DNA of 64,000 nucleotides, taken from NCBI RefSeq assembly GCF_053078305.1, contig NZ_CP166879.1; one strand, written 5' to 3'. The translations under genes and the position numbers were made by a program. The notes under the pieces were generated by a model. That model saw nothing but the letters and a program-made list of their open reading frames with translations, was not told where the DNA came from and ran no database searches. Below are positions 24,715 to 29,440 of the stretch, piece after piece. Each line of letters opens with the position of its first letter. Positions within the stretch are counted from its first letter, which is position 1.

Positions 24715-24930
24715 CTCCTCTCCATAAGTCATCGATAAAAAGCGAAACAACAACCATGTGTTTTTGCAAAACCATTTGATATCATTGACATTTTTCGCAT
24801 TGACGACATCAAAACACATCGTAAGGTTGTTGTATTGATTTTATTTTCACCTTACTTATCAAGTAGATATACCAAACAATTAAACAACAACCACCCCCTC
24901 AAAAAATCTCATAAATAGTGAAAACGCGCG

Positions 24931-24942
24931 AGGTCGCCGCCC
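24931..24942 (-). other. cosN cohesive-end sequence (GGGCGGCGACCT on minus strand)
   Basis: rc of 24911-24942 = GGGCGGCGACCTCGCGCGTTTTCACTATTTAT, near-identical to the lambda left end. Confidence 0.85.
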
Positions 24943-25201
24943 CGTAACGGGTCCATATGCCGGAAAGGACCCGAGAAAATGATAATGATTATCAGTTGCA
25001 ACAAAATCCAGTTTCTTCCACCATCGCACCGGACCAGCGACCATGAGGGGACAACGCCGCGCTCCGTTAACGCGGTAAACCCCGGTGTGTATCGTTTTTG
25101 ATTATCCCCGCACACTCGCGCAGAGGAGTCTCCCTGTCGGGCTGCGGTCTCTGTTAATGCAGGAATACGGCGACAATACCGCGCATGGATAATAAGGTCG
25201 C

Positions 25202-25426
25202 TCAACACACTGGCTGTAATGCAGCCGATACCATGCGGCATTTAGCTGCATTCATCGTACACTCAACGGTTAGCTCTTCATTCGTGGCATTCACCTGAAA
25301 GGTCCGGGAGTGTAATTGCGTACATTTACCACTGAACGAACCTTCAACAAGAACACGACCACACTGCAAAATACGGAACGGAATTGTTCCCTGAAAAGGC
25401 TTTACGGTTACCAGTAATTTCTTCAT
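25202..25426 (-). CDS. Hypothetical 74-aa protein between Rz and cos
   Basis: MKKLLVTVKPFQGTIPFRILQCGRV...; GGAG RBS 5 nt upstream of ATG at 25426. Confidence 0.4.
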   Translation of the reverse strand: MKKLLVTVKPFQGTIPFRILQCGRVLVEGSFSGKCTQLHSRTFQVNATNEELTVECTMNAAKCRMVSAALQPVC

Positions 25427-25449
25427 GCATTCTCCGGATAACAAAAATA

Positions 25450-25917
25450 CTAGTTAATACACTGAGTGCGGATATATTCCTTCGCCCCTTCCAGCTGCTT
25501 CTGCATTGTCATCAACCGTTCTCTGAGGATGAAATAATCCCGTTCAGCGGTGTCTGCCAGTCGGGGGCCGGTTGCATTATCCACGCCGGAGGTGGTGGGG
25601 GCTTCACGCACGGAGCCTGGACAGGTGGCTTTAACCCGCAGGCGCTTACGACCAGCGGCAACATCAGCACGCAGAGTTTCATTTTCAGCTCTCGCATCGG
25701 CTAATTCCCTCGAGTATTTAGCATCGAGCGCAGCAACATCGCGCTGGCGCTGCTGCATATCAGTAATGGTTGCGTTTGCCAGCTCCAGCTCTCTGGCTTT
25801 TTTATCGCGCTGCGCTTTGTAGGTGATGGCGTTATCGCGGTAATGATTCAGCCCCAGACTAAGCGCACCACAGGCCACCAGCAGGACAATAATCACCACA
25901 CACAGAACACGGTTCAT
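25450..25917 (-). CDS. Rz: i-spanin Rz
   Basis: ...[45 protein letters not shown]... matches lambda Rz. Confidence 0.9.
25512..25697 (-). CDS. Rz1: o-spanin Rz1 lipoprotein, embedded in +1 frame of Rz
   Basis: ...[27 protein letters not shown]... matches lambda Rz1; lipobox VSAC. Confidence 0.85.
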
Positions 25918-26849
25918 ATCACCACCATTTCACTGTTTTCTTTTTCCAGACGTTTTTTTGCAACAGCGAAATACCGGTCATCCTTTTCTATTCCGGTAAA
26001 CCGTCTCCCCGTCCGGATACATGCAACACCTGTTGAACCACTCCCCATAGTAAAATCCAGTACCCTGTCGCCAGGGTTGCTGTACGTCTGAATCAGCTCT
26101 TCCAGTAATGCAACTGGCTTCTGGGTCGGATGCCATCGCTCCCGCTCCCGCGCGTACTCCAGAATATTTGCGCGGTATTTTTTCCCCTGAGGGAGATTAA
26201 AAACCACAGTGCCGTAACCGGAATTCACTTTGCACATTTCTTCATATGTCATGAAACCCGGCATACGGTCGATACCAAAGCGTTTAATTAACTCGTTGTA
26301 CGTATCCTGTGAGCAGAGGGAAAACTGGACTGTGTTCACGCGAAAAAAATGCTCTGCCCGACAGTGCCCCAGTGTTTTGTTAACTTCCTTGTCTGTCCTG
26401 TGGCCAATGAAAGAAAGGATATTTCGGGCGTACTCCCTCAGCGGGTGGTTTTTCTCACTGTCATATTTTTTCCGGAAAACAACGATATCCTCGAATAAAG
26501 ATACAGGTGCTTTTTTTACTGAAAGCGGGTTGGGGAAATGCTCCTTCTTCCACACCATACGATATAAAAACGGCAGGTTTTTATCCGCCAGAGTAATCAT
26601 CGTGCTTGTATGCGGCTCCTGGCTGAACATGACCAGCACACCGCCCACCCTCAGCAGTCGTTCGCACTGTGTGAAAATATCTTCAGGATTTAAGGCATCG
26701 TCCCATGCTGTCGTACTCTTATCCCATGTACGGAGTGTAAGCCCTTTAATGGTTCCATACGGCGGGTCACATAAAACCAGGTCAACACTTCCCGGTAGTA
26801 ATGAAGGCATAACATCAAGACAGTCACCGGAATACAGTACACATTTCAT
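25914..26849 (-). CDS. DNA methyltransferase, beta-class (DPPY, N6-adenine or N4-cytosine); stop overlaps Rz start
   Basis: [10 protein letters not shown] near N-terminus; HPTQKP and FTMGSGSTG (SAM-binding) near C-terminus; ATGA overlap with Rz. Confidence 0.75.
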
Positions 26850-26856
26850 GTTTCTG

Positions 26857-26988
26857 TCACCCCACCAGCCCTGACAGAGTTAAGACGCGCCAGGCAGTGG
26901 AAAAGCAAATAGCAACCAGCATTAGTGAAAATGAAATGCCGACGATTACACAGAGGATCTTCGCCAGCATTATGAGTTTGTCTGACAT
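26857..26988 (-). CDS. Small single-pass membrane peptide (43 aa)
   Basis: MSDKLIMLAKILCVIVGISFSLMLVAICF...; GGGAGG RBS; ends 5 nt before the MTase start. Confidence 0.45.
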   Translation of the reverse strand: MSDKLIMLAKILCVIVGISFSLMLVAICFSTAWRVLTLSGLVG

Positions 26989-27002
26989 GTTTAATCCTCC
27001 CT

Positions 27003-27185
27003 TCACGATTTCAACGCAATGACCAGTTTTGCCAGCCCATACAGCATCGGAGACACAGCGATACCGACCGCCACCCACTTAATAGCAAAAGCCAGTGCTC
27101 TGCTGATGTCATCAGTTACTGGCGCTTTCAGTTCAAGGCCGTTTTTCATAGTCAACCTCAACAGAATTCGTTTATACTTTTCCAT
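27003..27185 (-). CDS. Small membrane protein (60 aa from ATG 27185; track ORF uses GTG at 27218)
   Basis: MEKYKRILLRLTMKNGLELKAPV...IKWVAVGIAVSPMLYGLAKLVIALKS; GGGAG RBS; C-terminal TM helix. Confidence 0.45.
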   Translation of the reverse strand: MEKYKRILLRLTMKNGLELKAPVTDDISRALAFAIKWVAVGIAVSPMLYGLAKLVIALKS

Positions 27186-27227
27186 GTTCTCCCTTGCCTT
27201 ATCCAAGGTCAGAAACACAAAACCCCG

Positions 27228-27256
27228 CTTGCTGCCAACAAACGGGGTTTTTACTT
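27228..27256. terminator. Bidirectional hairpin terminator between endolysin and downstream insert
   Basis: aaaaccccg...cggggttttt with A-run and T-run flanks. Confidence 0.5.
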
Positions 27257-27341
27257 TTATTCACTTACATTTTGCCAGTTCGCAGGATTTCGTGTTATCC
27301 GTCCATGTAAGCAAACCTCATTTTTCAGCAAAATATTCTGC

Positions 27342-27875
27342 TTATCTGTCGATTTCCCAGCACGCCAGCGCGCTCTCCTGGTCTCTCCGGGATACCTGAC
27401 CGTAACAGTTATTTGAGCGAATACGGCAGTCTCTGCCACCGTCCTTAATCCACCAGCGAATCGCCTCACACGCTCCCCTGCGATCGCCTGCATTAATTCG
27501 TTTATAAAACGTCGACGGGAAACACTTACCTGGGCCAATGTTGTAAGGACAGAATGACGCGATCCCCGCTTTCTGGGGTTCAGTCAGTGGCACTTTGATG
27601 TTTTTCGCCACCCATGCCAGCGCCTTATCACGTTCAATGGCGTTAACCTGGTCGCATTTTTCCTTCGACAGCTTCATGCCAGGGACGACAGGCTTACCAT
27701 CCACCCGGGTGGCACCACGGCAGATGGTCCAGATACCCGCACCATCACGGTATGCCGTGCTGTGGTTACCTTCTTTTTCGTCAAGAAACTGGTCGAGGAT
27801 TTCAGGCGCAGGCGCACCTGCGGCAATCAGCGCCAGAACAGCAGCTGACAGGCCGTATTTGATTTTTGCGTTCAT
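27342..27875 (-). CDS. R: SAR endolysin (phage lysozyme with N-terminal signal-anchor-release domain)
   Basis: N-terminal weakly hydrophobic Gly/Ala-rich TM (LSAAVLALIAAGAPAPE) then lysozyme-like body; pinholin partner upstream. Confidence 0.8.
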   Translation of the reverse strand: MNAKIKYGLSAAVLALIAAGAPAPEILDQFLDEKEGNHSTAYRDGAGIWTICRGATRVDGKPVVPGMKLSKEKCDQVNAIERDKALAWVAKNIKVPLTEPQKAGIASFCPYNIGPGKCFPSTFYKRINAGDRRGACEAIRWWIKDGGRDCRIRSNNCYGQVSRRDQESALACWEIDR

Positions 27876-27911
27876 GTATATATTAAATATTCAGCCGCTG
27901 TCCCTGGCCCA

Positions 27912-28898
27912 CTAAATACGCACTTTAAGATAAGTCAGCCCCGGCTGGATCCAGCCATCAGGCTCTTTCTTAAAGGGTGGCGTATTGAAATCACAAAGAA
28001 GAGCCTCCCGCACCGCAGCATCCCTGTCTGCACCACTGGCAAGTGCTTCAATCTCTGCCGCCAGCTGCAGATATCCCATGCAGCGACCAATGCGCTTCAT
28101 CAGCCCCTGTTTTTTATTGTTCTTCAGGTAATCAATGGCAAATTCAATGAGCGTCTCACTGTGCTGGTGCGATGGCGGTGTTACTTTTCCATTTTCTGAT
28201 ATGGTGATTTTCCCGTCATCACCGGATACAACAAAGGATGGCCGGTTACACTCCCGTTCCTGGTTTTTGTCCGACACAGGCACAGTAAAATCACTTTCAT
28301 GCCCGTTTTTACGACAGTCCTCGCCACGTACCGCAGCAAATACCGACAAGGCATACTCCTTTGCTCTCGCTTCATAGTCGCTGAATGTTGTTTTCGGATC
28401 GTAGTCTTCCCTGTACATAACCGACAGAACTTCCTCATGATCAATATGAACACTGACCACGCTGCCTATTCTTTTGGTCAGCACAAGACGAGAATCTTCC
28501 CCGACTTTCACTCCTGGTGTCACACGTGCCGGAAGCTCCACATTAACCATCGCGCTCTGCACATCATCAGGCGCATTTTTTACCGGTTCGTTGACCTTTT
28601 CACGCCCCGGGTAAGTGGCGATTTTTTCCGGCATTGTCCATGAAGAAATATTCTGAAAGCCACATCGCGCAGTCCCTTCGCGTAATCCGAGAGCCGCATC
28701 CATGAAAAACTGCTTCGCCTGTTTTTTCGCCTCAGCTTCGTAAAATTCCAGCGTGGCACCTTCAGTACGGTCAAGACTAATCGCCACATATGGCGACAAC
28801 AACGACGGCTGACCGGCAATTTCCAGTGCCACCGTAACAGTTATCTTATCCGGGTAATGATTTATCCCTTTTACAACCAGTTCATATTTGTTATTCAT
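27912..28898 (-). CDS. Unknown 328-aa protein inserted between holin and endolysin
   Basis: MNNKYELVVKGINHYPDKITVTVALEIAG...; GGGGAGAG RBS; start 5 nt after S stop; no TM or signal peptide; no motif I can assign. Confidence 0.7.
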   Translation of the reverse strand: MNNKYELVVKGINHYPDKITVTVALEIAGQPSLLSPYVAISLDRTEGATLEFYEAEAKKQAKQFFMDAALGLREGTARCGFQNISSWTMPEKIATYPGREKVNEPVKNAPDDVQSAMVNVELPARVTPGVKVGEDSRLVLTKRIGSVVSVHIDHEEVLSVMYREDYDPKTTFSDYEARAKEYALSVFAAVRGEDCRKNGHESDFTVPVSDKNQERECNRPSFVVSGDDGKITISENGKVTPPSHQHSETLIEFAIDYLKNNKKQGLMKRIGRCMGYLQLAAEIEALASGADRDAAVREALLCDFNTPPFKKEPDGWIQPGLTYLKVRI

Positions 28899-28902
28899 CG
28901 CT

Positions 28903-29118
28903 TTACTCTCCCCGGGCCGCCTTACGCCGGTCTTCTCTGATTTTAAAATACAGGTTCGTCAGGTATGTCAGCAGACCAAACAGCAGACTCCCCAGCACGC
29001 CTATTGCCGCCCACTGAGACGGGGAAACCCTGTCCAGCAACTGCAGGAACCAGTAGCCCGTTCCCACCGCTGACGTGGTGTATGACACACCTGTTGTGAT
29101 TTTTTCCATCTGGTACAT
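28903..29118 (-). CDS. S: Class II pinholin (phage 21 S-like), dual-start motif MYQMEK
   Basis: ...[51 protein letters not shown] matches S21; GGGAGACGGGG RBS. Confidence 0.85.
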
Positions 29119-29194
29119 ACCCCGTCTCCCGCAATCCGGAAGCTCACAACAATATAAAGACCACCGGCACACACCGATGGTCCCTTGCGCATGC

Positions 29195-29440
29195 TTACAT
29201 CATCATGTCGCTGTCAGGTGTGGGTTCACCGCCATCTGAAGCACTCCCCTCACCCGCAATGCCTTCCGGCTCCGGAACTGCCGGTGCGCCCAGCAGTTCA
29301 TCCAGAATGGCATCCACTTCTGCATCAAGACGCGCCTCAAGGTTCTGGCGGAGTTTCTGTTTCAGTGCGCTCAGGACTTCTTCAGAGCGCAGGACTTCCT
29401 TCACTGCCTCTGCAGTGACCAGGGATGTAATTTCTGACAT
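29195..29440 (-). CDS. Hypothetical acidic 81-aa protein
   Basis: [30 protein letters not shown]... from internal ATG of track ORF 29195-29614. Confidence 0.4.

Follow-up and report, generated by a model that had tools for sequence, protein, structure and literature searches.

A 64,000-nucleotide stretch of contig NZ_CP166879.1 (RefSeq assembly GCF_053078305.1), hereafter the window, includes what is best explained as the lysis cassette of a lambdoid prophage, and between the endolysin gene R and the spanin gene Rz this cassette carries a 311-codon gene for a DNA methyltransferase (MTase), here termed MTase-C. MTase-C is a clean one-gene insertion into the cassette, and in lambdoid as well as P2-like prophages its clade habitually occupies the slot that separates the endolysin gene from Rz. 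It is probable, given its sequence and its position, that this orphan enzyme is single-gene cargo expressed from no transcript but the Q-antiterminated late one, and that it modifies progeny DNA before packaging. An initial annotation of the window had described, between R and Rz, two small open reading frames (ORFs) with a single transmembrane (TM) segment each, here p60 and p43, followed by a 311-aa beta-class MTase with a DPPY motif, and all three are present (Table 1).

MTase-C is covered end to end by the Pfam profile PF01555, N6_N4_Mtase (E=1.9e-32, model positions 1-221 of 221), and it also matches phrog_67 among the PHROG profiles (E=2.6e-70). The motifs DPPY (residues 28-31) and FTMGSGSTG (residues 266-274) are invariant in 15 homologues, the alignment of which has 84 invariant columns with every catalytic motif among them. 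The motif order, namely motif IV, then the target-recognition domain (TRD), then motif I, is that of the beta class. 'Dam-like', a label that the initial annotation had considered possible, is hence a misnomer and was rejected, because Dam has the alpha order (I, TRD, IV). No Dam family was found among the matches of MTase-C in Pfam or NCBIfam, and the best NCBIfam matches were partial ones to CcrM and YhdJ, far under the cut-offs of these models. The AlphaFold2 (AF2) model of MTase-C has a predicted local distance difference test score (pLDDT) of 79. When it was compared with known structures by Foldseek, the top 37 matches were all beta-class N6-adenine or N4-cytosine MTases, with M.BceJIV, CcrM, M1.HpyAVI, MboIIA and RsrI as the best (E of ~1e-14 to 1e-15). 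The DPPY motif favours adenine.

The gene is intact and under purifying selection: the ratio of nonsynonymous to synonymous substitution rates (dN/dS) is 0.13-0.29 for pairs at 56-91% identity with unsaturated dS, the deepest pairs being saturated. Its GC content is 47%, versus 54% in R and Rz. No cognate restriction endonuclease (REase) adjoins MTase-C, whose neighbours are p43 and Rz, and the interval contains no further family-matching ORF of at least 35 aa. In addition, a search with PADLOC returned generic MTase models only, and nothing for the small peptides or for the 328-aa and 74-aa ORFs of the cassette. A type II restriction-modification system was considered and rejected for MTase-C, since a nuclease partner is absent. 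We conclude that MTase-C is most probably an intact orphan beta-class S-adenosylmethionine-dependent DNA amino-methyltransferase acting on N6 of adenine.

The closest characterised relative of MTase-C is M.EcoGII, a non-specific adenine MTase of Escherichia coli O104:H4 prophages that reportedly methylates adenine in any context and has a four-helix helix-turn-helix (HTH) TRD; it is described as unexpressed in the lysogen and harmful on expression, and an 'export-only' modification has been proposed (PMC5778455, PMC11551740). The two proteins were aligned by HHalign with a probability of 99.7% and 30% identity over 294 columns, the central helices included. Both have the beta-class order DPPY ... 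FxGSGST, and both are prophage-borne and orphan; MTase-C lies in the late operon of a phage that also carries an M.EcoGII orthologue there. They differ in that identity is only 26-30%, in length (311 vs 349 aa), and in the ~40-aa charged two-helix linker of M.EcoGII, which MTase-C lacks. Their addresses differ as well, since MTase-C lies between R and Rz whereas the M.EcoGII type is found directly after Q, and so do their frequencies (11 vs 1916 genomes, see below). The central region of the MTase-C model consists of four helices at residues 136-211 (pLDDT >90), which align to the region described as a four-helix HTH domain in M.EcoGII, the comparison being one of an AF2 model with a published description. 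As judged by these alignments, MTase-C is a distant compact relative of M.EcoGII that falls outside that family.

The Rossmann core and the motifs of MTase-C match those of the solved N6-adenine MTases M1.HpyAVI (5hek/5hfj), CcrM (6pbd), M.BceJIV (8urk), M.RsrI and M.MboIIA (hmmsearch E of 5e-30 to 2e-17; Foldseek E of ~1e-14, with a target TM-score of at most 0.8). However, identity to these enzymes is ~20% and the likeness is confined to the core (query TM-score ~0.5), the central helical domain of MTase-C having no counterpart in the solved beta-class structures.

The insertion point was defined by a three-way alignment that included the MTase-less relative L002, in which the order is R, hairpin, p60, p43 and Rz. 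As revealed by this alignment, ~930 bp of the window replace a 7-nt spacer between the p43 stop codon and the Rz ATG, so that the view of the MTase as an insertion in the lysis cassette, already taken in the initial annotation, is borne out. The same annotation had noted that the MTase gene runs with its stop codon into the Rz ATG, and indeed the TGA of the former and the ATG of the latter are fused as ATGA. The final MTase-C codons (GGTGGTGAT) provide a Shine-Dalgarno (SD)-like sequence for Rz. The overlap is kept in nine of the 12 contexts with the order endolysin-MTase-Rz described below, where the last MTase codons make up a GGTGG-type SD. Behind a peptide ending in RWW, the MTase or Rz is joined on through ...TGGTGGTGA(Y)ATGA, and the RWW codons (TGGTGGTGA) also act as SD and stop toward the next gene. 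The 3' end of MTase-C in the window is ...ATGGTGGTGATATGA, and in L008 the same string, read in another frame, forms the link between an RWW peptide and Rz. Since the 3' ends of these genes double as the initiation region of the gene that follows, the R-Rz interval is a chain of translationally abutted genes.

The distribution of this arrangement was analyzed in 5426 complete E. coli genomes by megablast. The whole R-to-Rz arrangement was found in seven of them, and many genomes matched R-Rz in two pieces separated by a gap of the size of the MTase gene. The MTase-C gene itself was present in 11 genomes (seven at 99% identity or more, one at 78% and three at 68%). At the protein level, many homologues at 55-91% identity were detected, mostly from Salmonella. 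The DNA around a spread of MTase-C homologues was then looked up or fetched, and the order endolysin-MTase-Rz was observed in 12 distinct contexts (56-100% identity) from E. coli and Salmonella, lambdoid as well as P2-like, with the MTase ORF intact in all 12. Apart from the window type, these are L003/L116, with Ant and a p43-type peptide upstream; L014, L007, L017 and L119, from E. coli or unassigned; the Salmonella lambdoid prophages L008, L106, L111 and L122, which have differing holins, Q proteins and terminases; and the Salmonella P2-like prophages L109 and L121, where the MTase lies between the holin/endolysin genes and gpR/gpS. In STEC308 the order is Q-HTH-MTase-holin, adjoining lysis genes, and the MTase is split, this being the sole split copy; in a P2-like element of Arsenophonus it is holin-lysozyme-Rz-MTase-gpR, with the MTase at 45% identity.

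The slot between endolysin and Rz is thus the habitual address of the MTase-C clade. Exceptions to it are the L098 homologue of Salmonella diarizonae, which lies beside a serine recombinase gene, the homologue of phage vB_EcoM-ep3, which follows a primase gene, and Firmicute homologues in early or packaging regions. For comparison, the M.EcoGII-type enzyme of the window (MTase-A, see below) is always after Q, and the Firmicute and virulent-phage homologues are in early or packaging regions. The statement of the initial annotation that MTases are not normal components of lysis cassettes holds for E. coli prophages generally, but not for this clade; a survey of the gene content between R and Rz, which it had also proposed, finds the MTase recurring in the 12 contexts but without fixed linkage to the peptides. 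The Rz gene beside the MTase in the P2-like prophages is of the lambdoid type, which suggests that peptide, MTase and Rz/Rz1 move together as a block.

Among the matches listed from isolated phages (50,697 records), no full-length relative (at least 95% query coverage) exceeded 54% identity, and six further records outside that listing were in the 60-80% identity band, irrespective of coverage. A scan of IMG/VR with the full MTase alignment, for which generic motifs had been picked, gave mostly 30-35% relatives. Eight loci, including Salmonella diarizonae (outside the lysis cassette) and Mesobacillus, were obtained from GTDB, whose species representatives under-sample prophages, with the family-specific middle region. 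In the literature nothing specific was retrieved on an MTase that separates the endolysin gene from the spanin genes, or on strain 2012EL-2448.

According to the ORF list and translations of the 64-kb window, all genes of the cassette region are on the minus strand. Lambdoid lysis genes are transcribed from a single Q-antiterminated late promoter, and when the sigma-70 consensus was scanned for, no promoter-like site was found on the minus strand within 25000-29400. The hairpin downstream of R has 15 pairs and a 3-nt loop and is followed by UUUUGUGUUU. On the coding strand it folds with a free energy (dG) of -21.1 kcal/mol (z=-3.5), and 0 of 200 shuffled sequences folded equally well; on the opposite strand the values are -14.3 kcal/mol and z=-2.0, and a U-rich tail follows the hairpin on both strands. 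Hence, of the bidirectional terminator named in the initial annotation, a terminator-like hairpin is present, and 'bidirectional' is plausible from the sequence only. The hairpin is kept in the MTase-less L002. An Rfam scan of 24800-29400 gave no family at threshold, the sole match being a sub-threshold rimP-leader on the hairpin (E=0.48), which we read as chance. Intra-operon terminators are known from lambdoid late operons, where they are thought to halt non-antiterminated transcription (PMC8022706).

Because a minus-strand promoter-like site is absent, the hairpin lies upstream, the gene overlaps Rz and lambdoid lysis genes depend on the late promoter, expression of MTase-C would be late only. 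With neither a promoter-like site nor a terminator of its own, and abutted to Rz by ATGA, the gene would have the late transcript as its sole source. The Q-antiterminated transcript would read through the hairpin after R, and MTase-C, silent in the lysogen, would be produced alongside the lysis and packaging proteins. It would then methylate replicated phage DNA ahead of encapsidation, and the progeny would reach the next host already protected against restriction, i.e., by an 'export-only' modification. P1 Dmt and Mu Mom are not known to be related to MTase-C in sequence or chemistry, nor to be located between endolysin and spanin genes. Their proposed logic is nevertheless the same, in that modification takes place in lytic growth only and protects or processes the progeny DNA, and export-only anti-restriction functions have been reviewed (PMC12707154).

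Several points weigh against late expression for the protection of progeny. The timing and the role of MTase-C are deduced from its position only, and the promoter scan was limited to the sigma-70 consensus. The SD of MTase-C is weak (GGTGGGG). With an M.EcoGII orthologue already resident, a further adenine MTase looks superfluous, save where M.EcoGII leaves the DNA incompletely modified or the substrate of MTase-C is a different one. Finally, P2-like prophages carry the lambdoid-type Rz beside the MTase, and the address could reflect hitch-hiking with Rz in lysis-cassette exchange, not selection for late expression.

A more far-reaching reading, which we put forward only tentatively and regard as rather unlikely, is that MTase-C represents a distinct compact clade related to M.EcoGII, with the lysis cassette as its home, chained to Rz and with a specificity that is possibly relaxed or lacking altogether. 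If so, the clade would travel with Rz between lambdoid and P2-like prophages, and relaxed specificity would lead to a broad 'last-minute' hypermethylation of the progeny; such an activity would be harmful in lysogens, hence the strictly late address.

Prophage MTases can change host methylomes, and the GC content of MTase-C, below that of its flanks, is moron-like. Both would fit a gene for lysogenic conversion, active in the lysogen, where it would reprogramme host expression or guard the chromosome as part of a defence system. We consider this improbable: the strand of MTase-C has no promoter-like site and a strong terminator-like hairpin stands upstream, there is no cognate nuclease or defence partner (generic MTase models only with PADLOC), and lysis genes flank MTase-C on both sides, one of them joined to it by a stop/start overlap.

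Somewhat less probable still is that methylation serves the phage cycle itself, e.g., the marking of a packaging site or late timing, rather than anti-restriction. The terminase genes lie ~1 kb downstream of MTase-C and would be co-expressed with it, and an analogy is offered by Dmt/Dam of P1, which needs adenine methylation at pac (PMC12707154). However, thousands of near-identical lysis/terminase regions lack MTase-C, which is therefore not essential, and the terminases that accompany the MTase are of unrelated types (Nu1/GpA, Terminase_6N and P2). We give equally little credence to a neutral hitch-hiker that persists through its physical lock to Rz and spreads by cassette recombination without gain for the phage. 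In its favour, the MTase and a lambdoid-type Rz, coupled by ATGA, occur as a unit inside P2-like prophages, and the MTase gene is rare in E. coli, but the ORF is intact in each of the 12 endolysin-MTase-Rz contexts (only the STEC308 copy is split), and the dN/dS values and the invariant catalytic motifs across 56-91% identity speak for selection.

The small peptides were then considered in their own right. p60 has an ATG start and an AGGGAG SD, and consists of a basic N-terminal segment (net charge of the N-flank +4) followed by a C-terminal hydrophobic segment, with a best 19-residue Kyte-Doolittle hydropathy of 1.90. p43 has a GGGAGG SD, one hydrophobic segment (hydropathy 2.86) and the C-terminus ...SGLVG. 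Pairwise dN/dS against diverged homologues was 0.05-0.46 for p43 and 0.08-0.46 for p60. These values and the PHROG matches (Table 1) indicate that p60 and p43 are more than chance ORFs, as the initial annotation had assumed. Their PHROG families have no assigned function, and no match was found in Pfam, even at E<=10, or in NCBIfam or PADLOC, DUF2730 and the holin families included; the antiholin, exclusion and toxin roles suggested in the initial annotation are thus conjectural. The homologues of p60 are from Escherichia and Salmonella only, save one partial entry labelled Pseudomonas aeruginosa, and none has a name.

The segment comprising the hairpin, p60 and p43 was found at 80% coverage or more in 1031 of the 5426 complete E. 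coli genomes (~1/5), O157:H7 strains among them. Since the MTase is present in 11, the R-Rz interval is normally occupied by the peptides, and the MTase is a rare single-gene addition to it. The peptides lie upstream of the MTase in seven contexts, downstream in two (L008 and L111) and are absent from three (L106, L121 and L122), and their C-termini are of at least three types, SGLVG, RWW (…AIRWW) and AIKG (…AIKG). In the MTase-bearing Shiga toxin-producing strain E. coli 2012EL-2448 (L001 4604-4788), p60 has lost its frame through 2 inserted bp (AG), and the IMG/VR prophage contigs L012 and L013 have the same allele and the same insertion. In our view p60 and p43 are separate, selected genes for putative membrane peptides, native to the R-Rz interval and independent of the MTase. 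The compact three-gene module of the initial annotation, whether taken as membrane-tethered methylation, a toxin or exclusion pair with a protective MTase, or a late protective system, is highly improbable: the ORFs are tightly packed behind the hairpin, only 7 nt separating p43 from the MTase, and a small hydrophobic-peptide ORF is immediately 5' of the MTase in seven of 12 contexts, but ~1000 E. coli genomes have the peptides without the MTase, the MTase is found without them or ahead of them in the five contexts just named, p60 is frameshifted in three loci, and the peptide type beside the MTase varies from locus to locus.

With low confidence, we would guess that p60 and p43 modulate the release of the endolysin or the action of the spanins. 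Mu gp25 'releasin' (DUF2730), a small membrane-tethered protein encoded near an endolysin of the signal-anchor-release (SAR) type, controls the release of that enzyme (PMC9239132), and its likeness to p60 and p43 is an analogy only. Being common, under purifying selection and uncharacterised, the peptides pose the more open question and are a concrete target for lysis laboratories. In L003, L007, L008, L014, L017, L109, L111, L119 and the window (26857-27185), arrays of zero to three small single-TM peptides were observed in the space from endolysin to Rz, 5' or 3' of the MTase, and no family annotation was found anywhere for them. It is conceivable, though rather unlikely, that these arrays of tail-anchored SGLVG, RWW and AIKG peptides constitute lysis regulators of a class not recognised before. 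The match to p60 is limited to residues 1-38, at 100% identity, in many database entries, and for this reason the frameshifted allele seems to be widespread.

The R-Rz interval takes other cargo as well. In Stx-type prophages the Ant (P22_AR_N) antirepressor gene lies between R and a p43-type peptide, as seen in Stx1a phages, L003 and L116. Ant is upstream of the peptide whereas MTase-C is directly on Rz, and the genes and their functions differ.

The coordinates of the late operon and the lysis cassette are compiled in Table 1.

Table 1. Features of the late operon and lysis cassette, in window coordinates and order of transcription.
Feature	Coordinates	Strand	Assignment and remarks
Q	36416-35721	-	phrog_304
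MTase-A, 352-aa DPPY protein	35161-34103	-	M.EcoGII orthologue directly downstream of Q
tRNA-Met/Arg/Arg	34062-33811	-	between MTase-A and MTase-B
MTase-B, 311-aa orphan MTase	33725-32790	-	phrog_6380, E=1.5e-77; FDGACGSG then NPPF
Class II holin	29118-28903	-	from translation; opens the lysis cassette; L001 homologue (98.6% identical) named 'class II holin family protein' by PGAP
328-aa ORF	28898-27912	-	between holin and endolysin; phrog_1085, a PHROG without assigned function
Endolysin R	27875-27342	-	phrog_7, E=2.8e-62; GH24 catalytic pattern E-x8-D-x5-T in translation
Hairpin	27251-27219	-	between R and p60, inside the late operon
p60, 60-aa ORF	27185-27003	-	phrog_1115, E=1.4e-42
p43, 43-aa ORF	26988-26857	-	phrog_4906, E=2.2e-24
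MTase-C, 311-aa ORF	26849-25914	-	PF01555 and phrog_67
MTase-C/Rz ATGA junction	25917-25914	-	stop codon overlaps start codon
Rz (i-spanin)	25917-25450	-	phrog_13, E=2.3e-76
Rz1 (o-spanin lipoprotein)	25697-25512	-	ORF embedded in Rz
74-aa ORF	25426-25202	-	directly after Rz; phrog_2571, a PHROG without assigned function
Terminase small and large subunits	24819-22308	-	downstream of the 74-aa ORF

The late transcript carries three MTases, none of which has a nuclease partner; MTase-A and MTase-B were detected when the window was scanned for further MTases. MTase-A is 94% identical over 348 aa to M.EcoGII (sequence from the supplement of PMC11551740), and is present in 1916 of the 5426 E. coli genomes. 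MTase-B, part of the same late operon, follows three tRNA genes, and no REase-like ORF was found near it. Its site after the tRNAs is the position of stx in Stx phages.

The reading that we prefer, an orphan MTase carried as late-expressed cargo for the modification of progeny DNA, has precedent: to evade restriction by means of orphan MTases kept silent in the lysogen is a strategy known from phages, and the gene itself is unsurprising. What is new is: i) the fixed address of the MTase-C clade 5' of Rz across unrelated temperate phage types, ii) the stacking of three orphan MTases, an M.EcoGII orthologue included, in one late operon, and iii) that, of the characterised enzymes, M.EcoGII is the one most closely related to the inserted gene. 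If MTase-C is compact and of low specificity, it could serve as a reagent, and it would extend the idea of prophage 'export-only' modification arsenals.

The cassette as a whole is best explained as a class II holin, a SAR-type endolysin and Rz/Rz1 within a lambdoid prophage. We read the holin as being of the phage-21 S-type, and the Ala/Gly-rich N-terminus of R as a putative SAR domain. The 328-aa ORF is presumably the 'first insertion' implied by the initial annotation. Its relatives carry the annotation DUF1327/YdfR and vary in length and content, L001 and L002 retaining partial matches only, over 115 aa in the former and over 75 aa in the latter, where the annotation is that of a partial pseudogene. 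The 74-aa ORF is conserved, at 93-100% identity in the relatives examined.

Further observations were made on the relatives of this prophage. L010 (IMG/VR UViG_2617271340_000013) is the window itself, at 99.99% identity. The second prophage of the same genome, L011 (UViG_2617271340_000015), shares a 6.9-kb lysis block that includes the MTase at 99.2%; beyond this block identity falls to 95% and the small terminase subunit differs. This suggests that the co-resident prophages exchanged the lysis block recently. JNEC-KY202 has two copies of the MTase gene. In L003 (2424-4941), MTase-Rz/Rz1 is followed by a ParD/ParE toxin-antitoxin pair and then by Ant-p43-Rz/Rz1 without the MTase, so that the distal part of the lysis cassette is duplicated in tandem around the toxin-antitoxin module. 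In the P2-like prophages L109 (3036-7689) and L121 (2244-4397), lambdoid-type Rz/Rz1 and the MTase replace the usual P2 lysA/lysB/lysC region, and in L109 a gene for a 747-aa SASA-domain esterase is inserted before gpR. Near the MTase homologue of L111 (1-1353, 6478-6890) there are genes resembling EcoRI_methylase and GmrSD/HNH (type IV restriction-like), and also a fragment of Methylase_S, which together form a dense cluster of modification/restriction genes.

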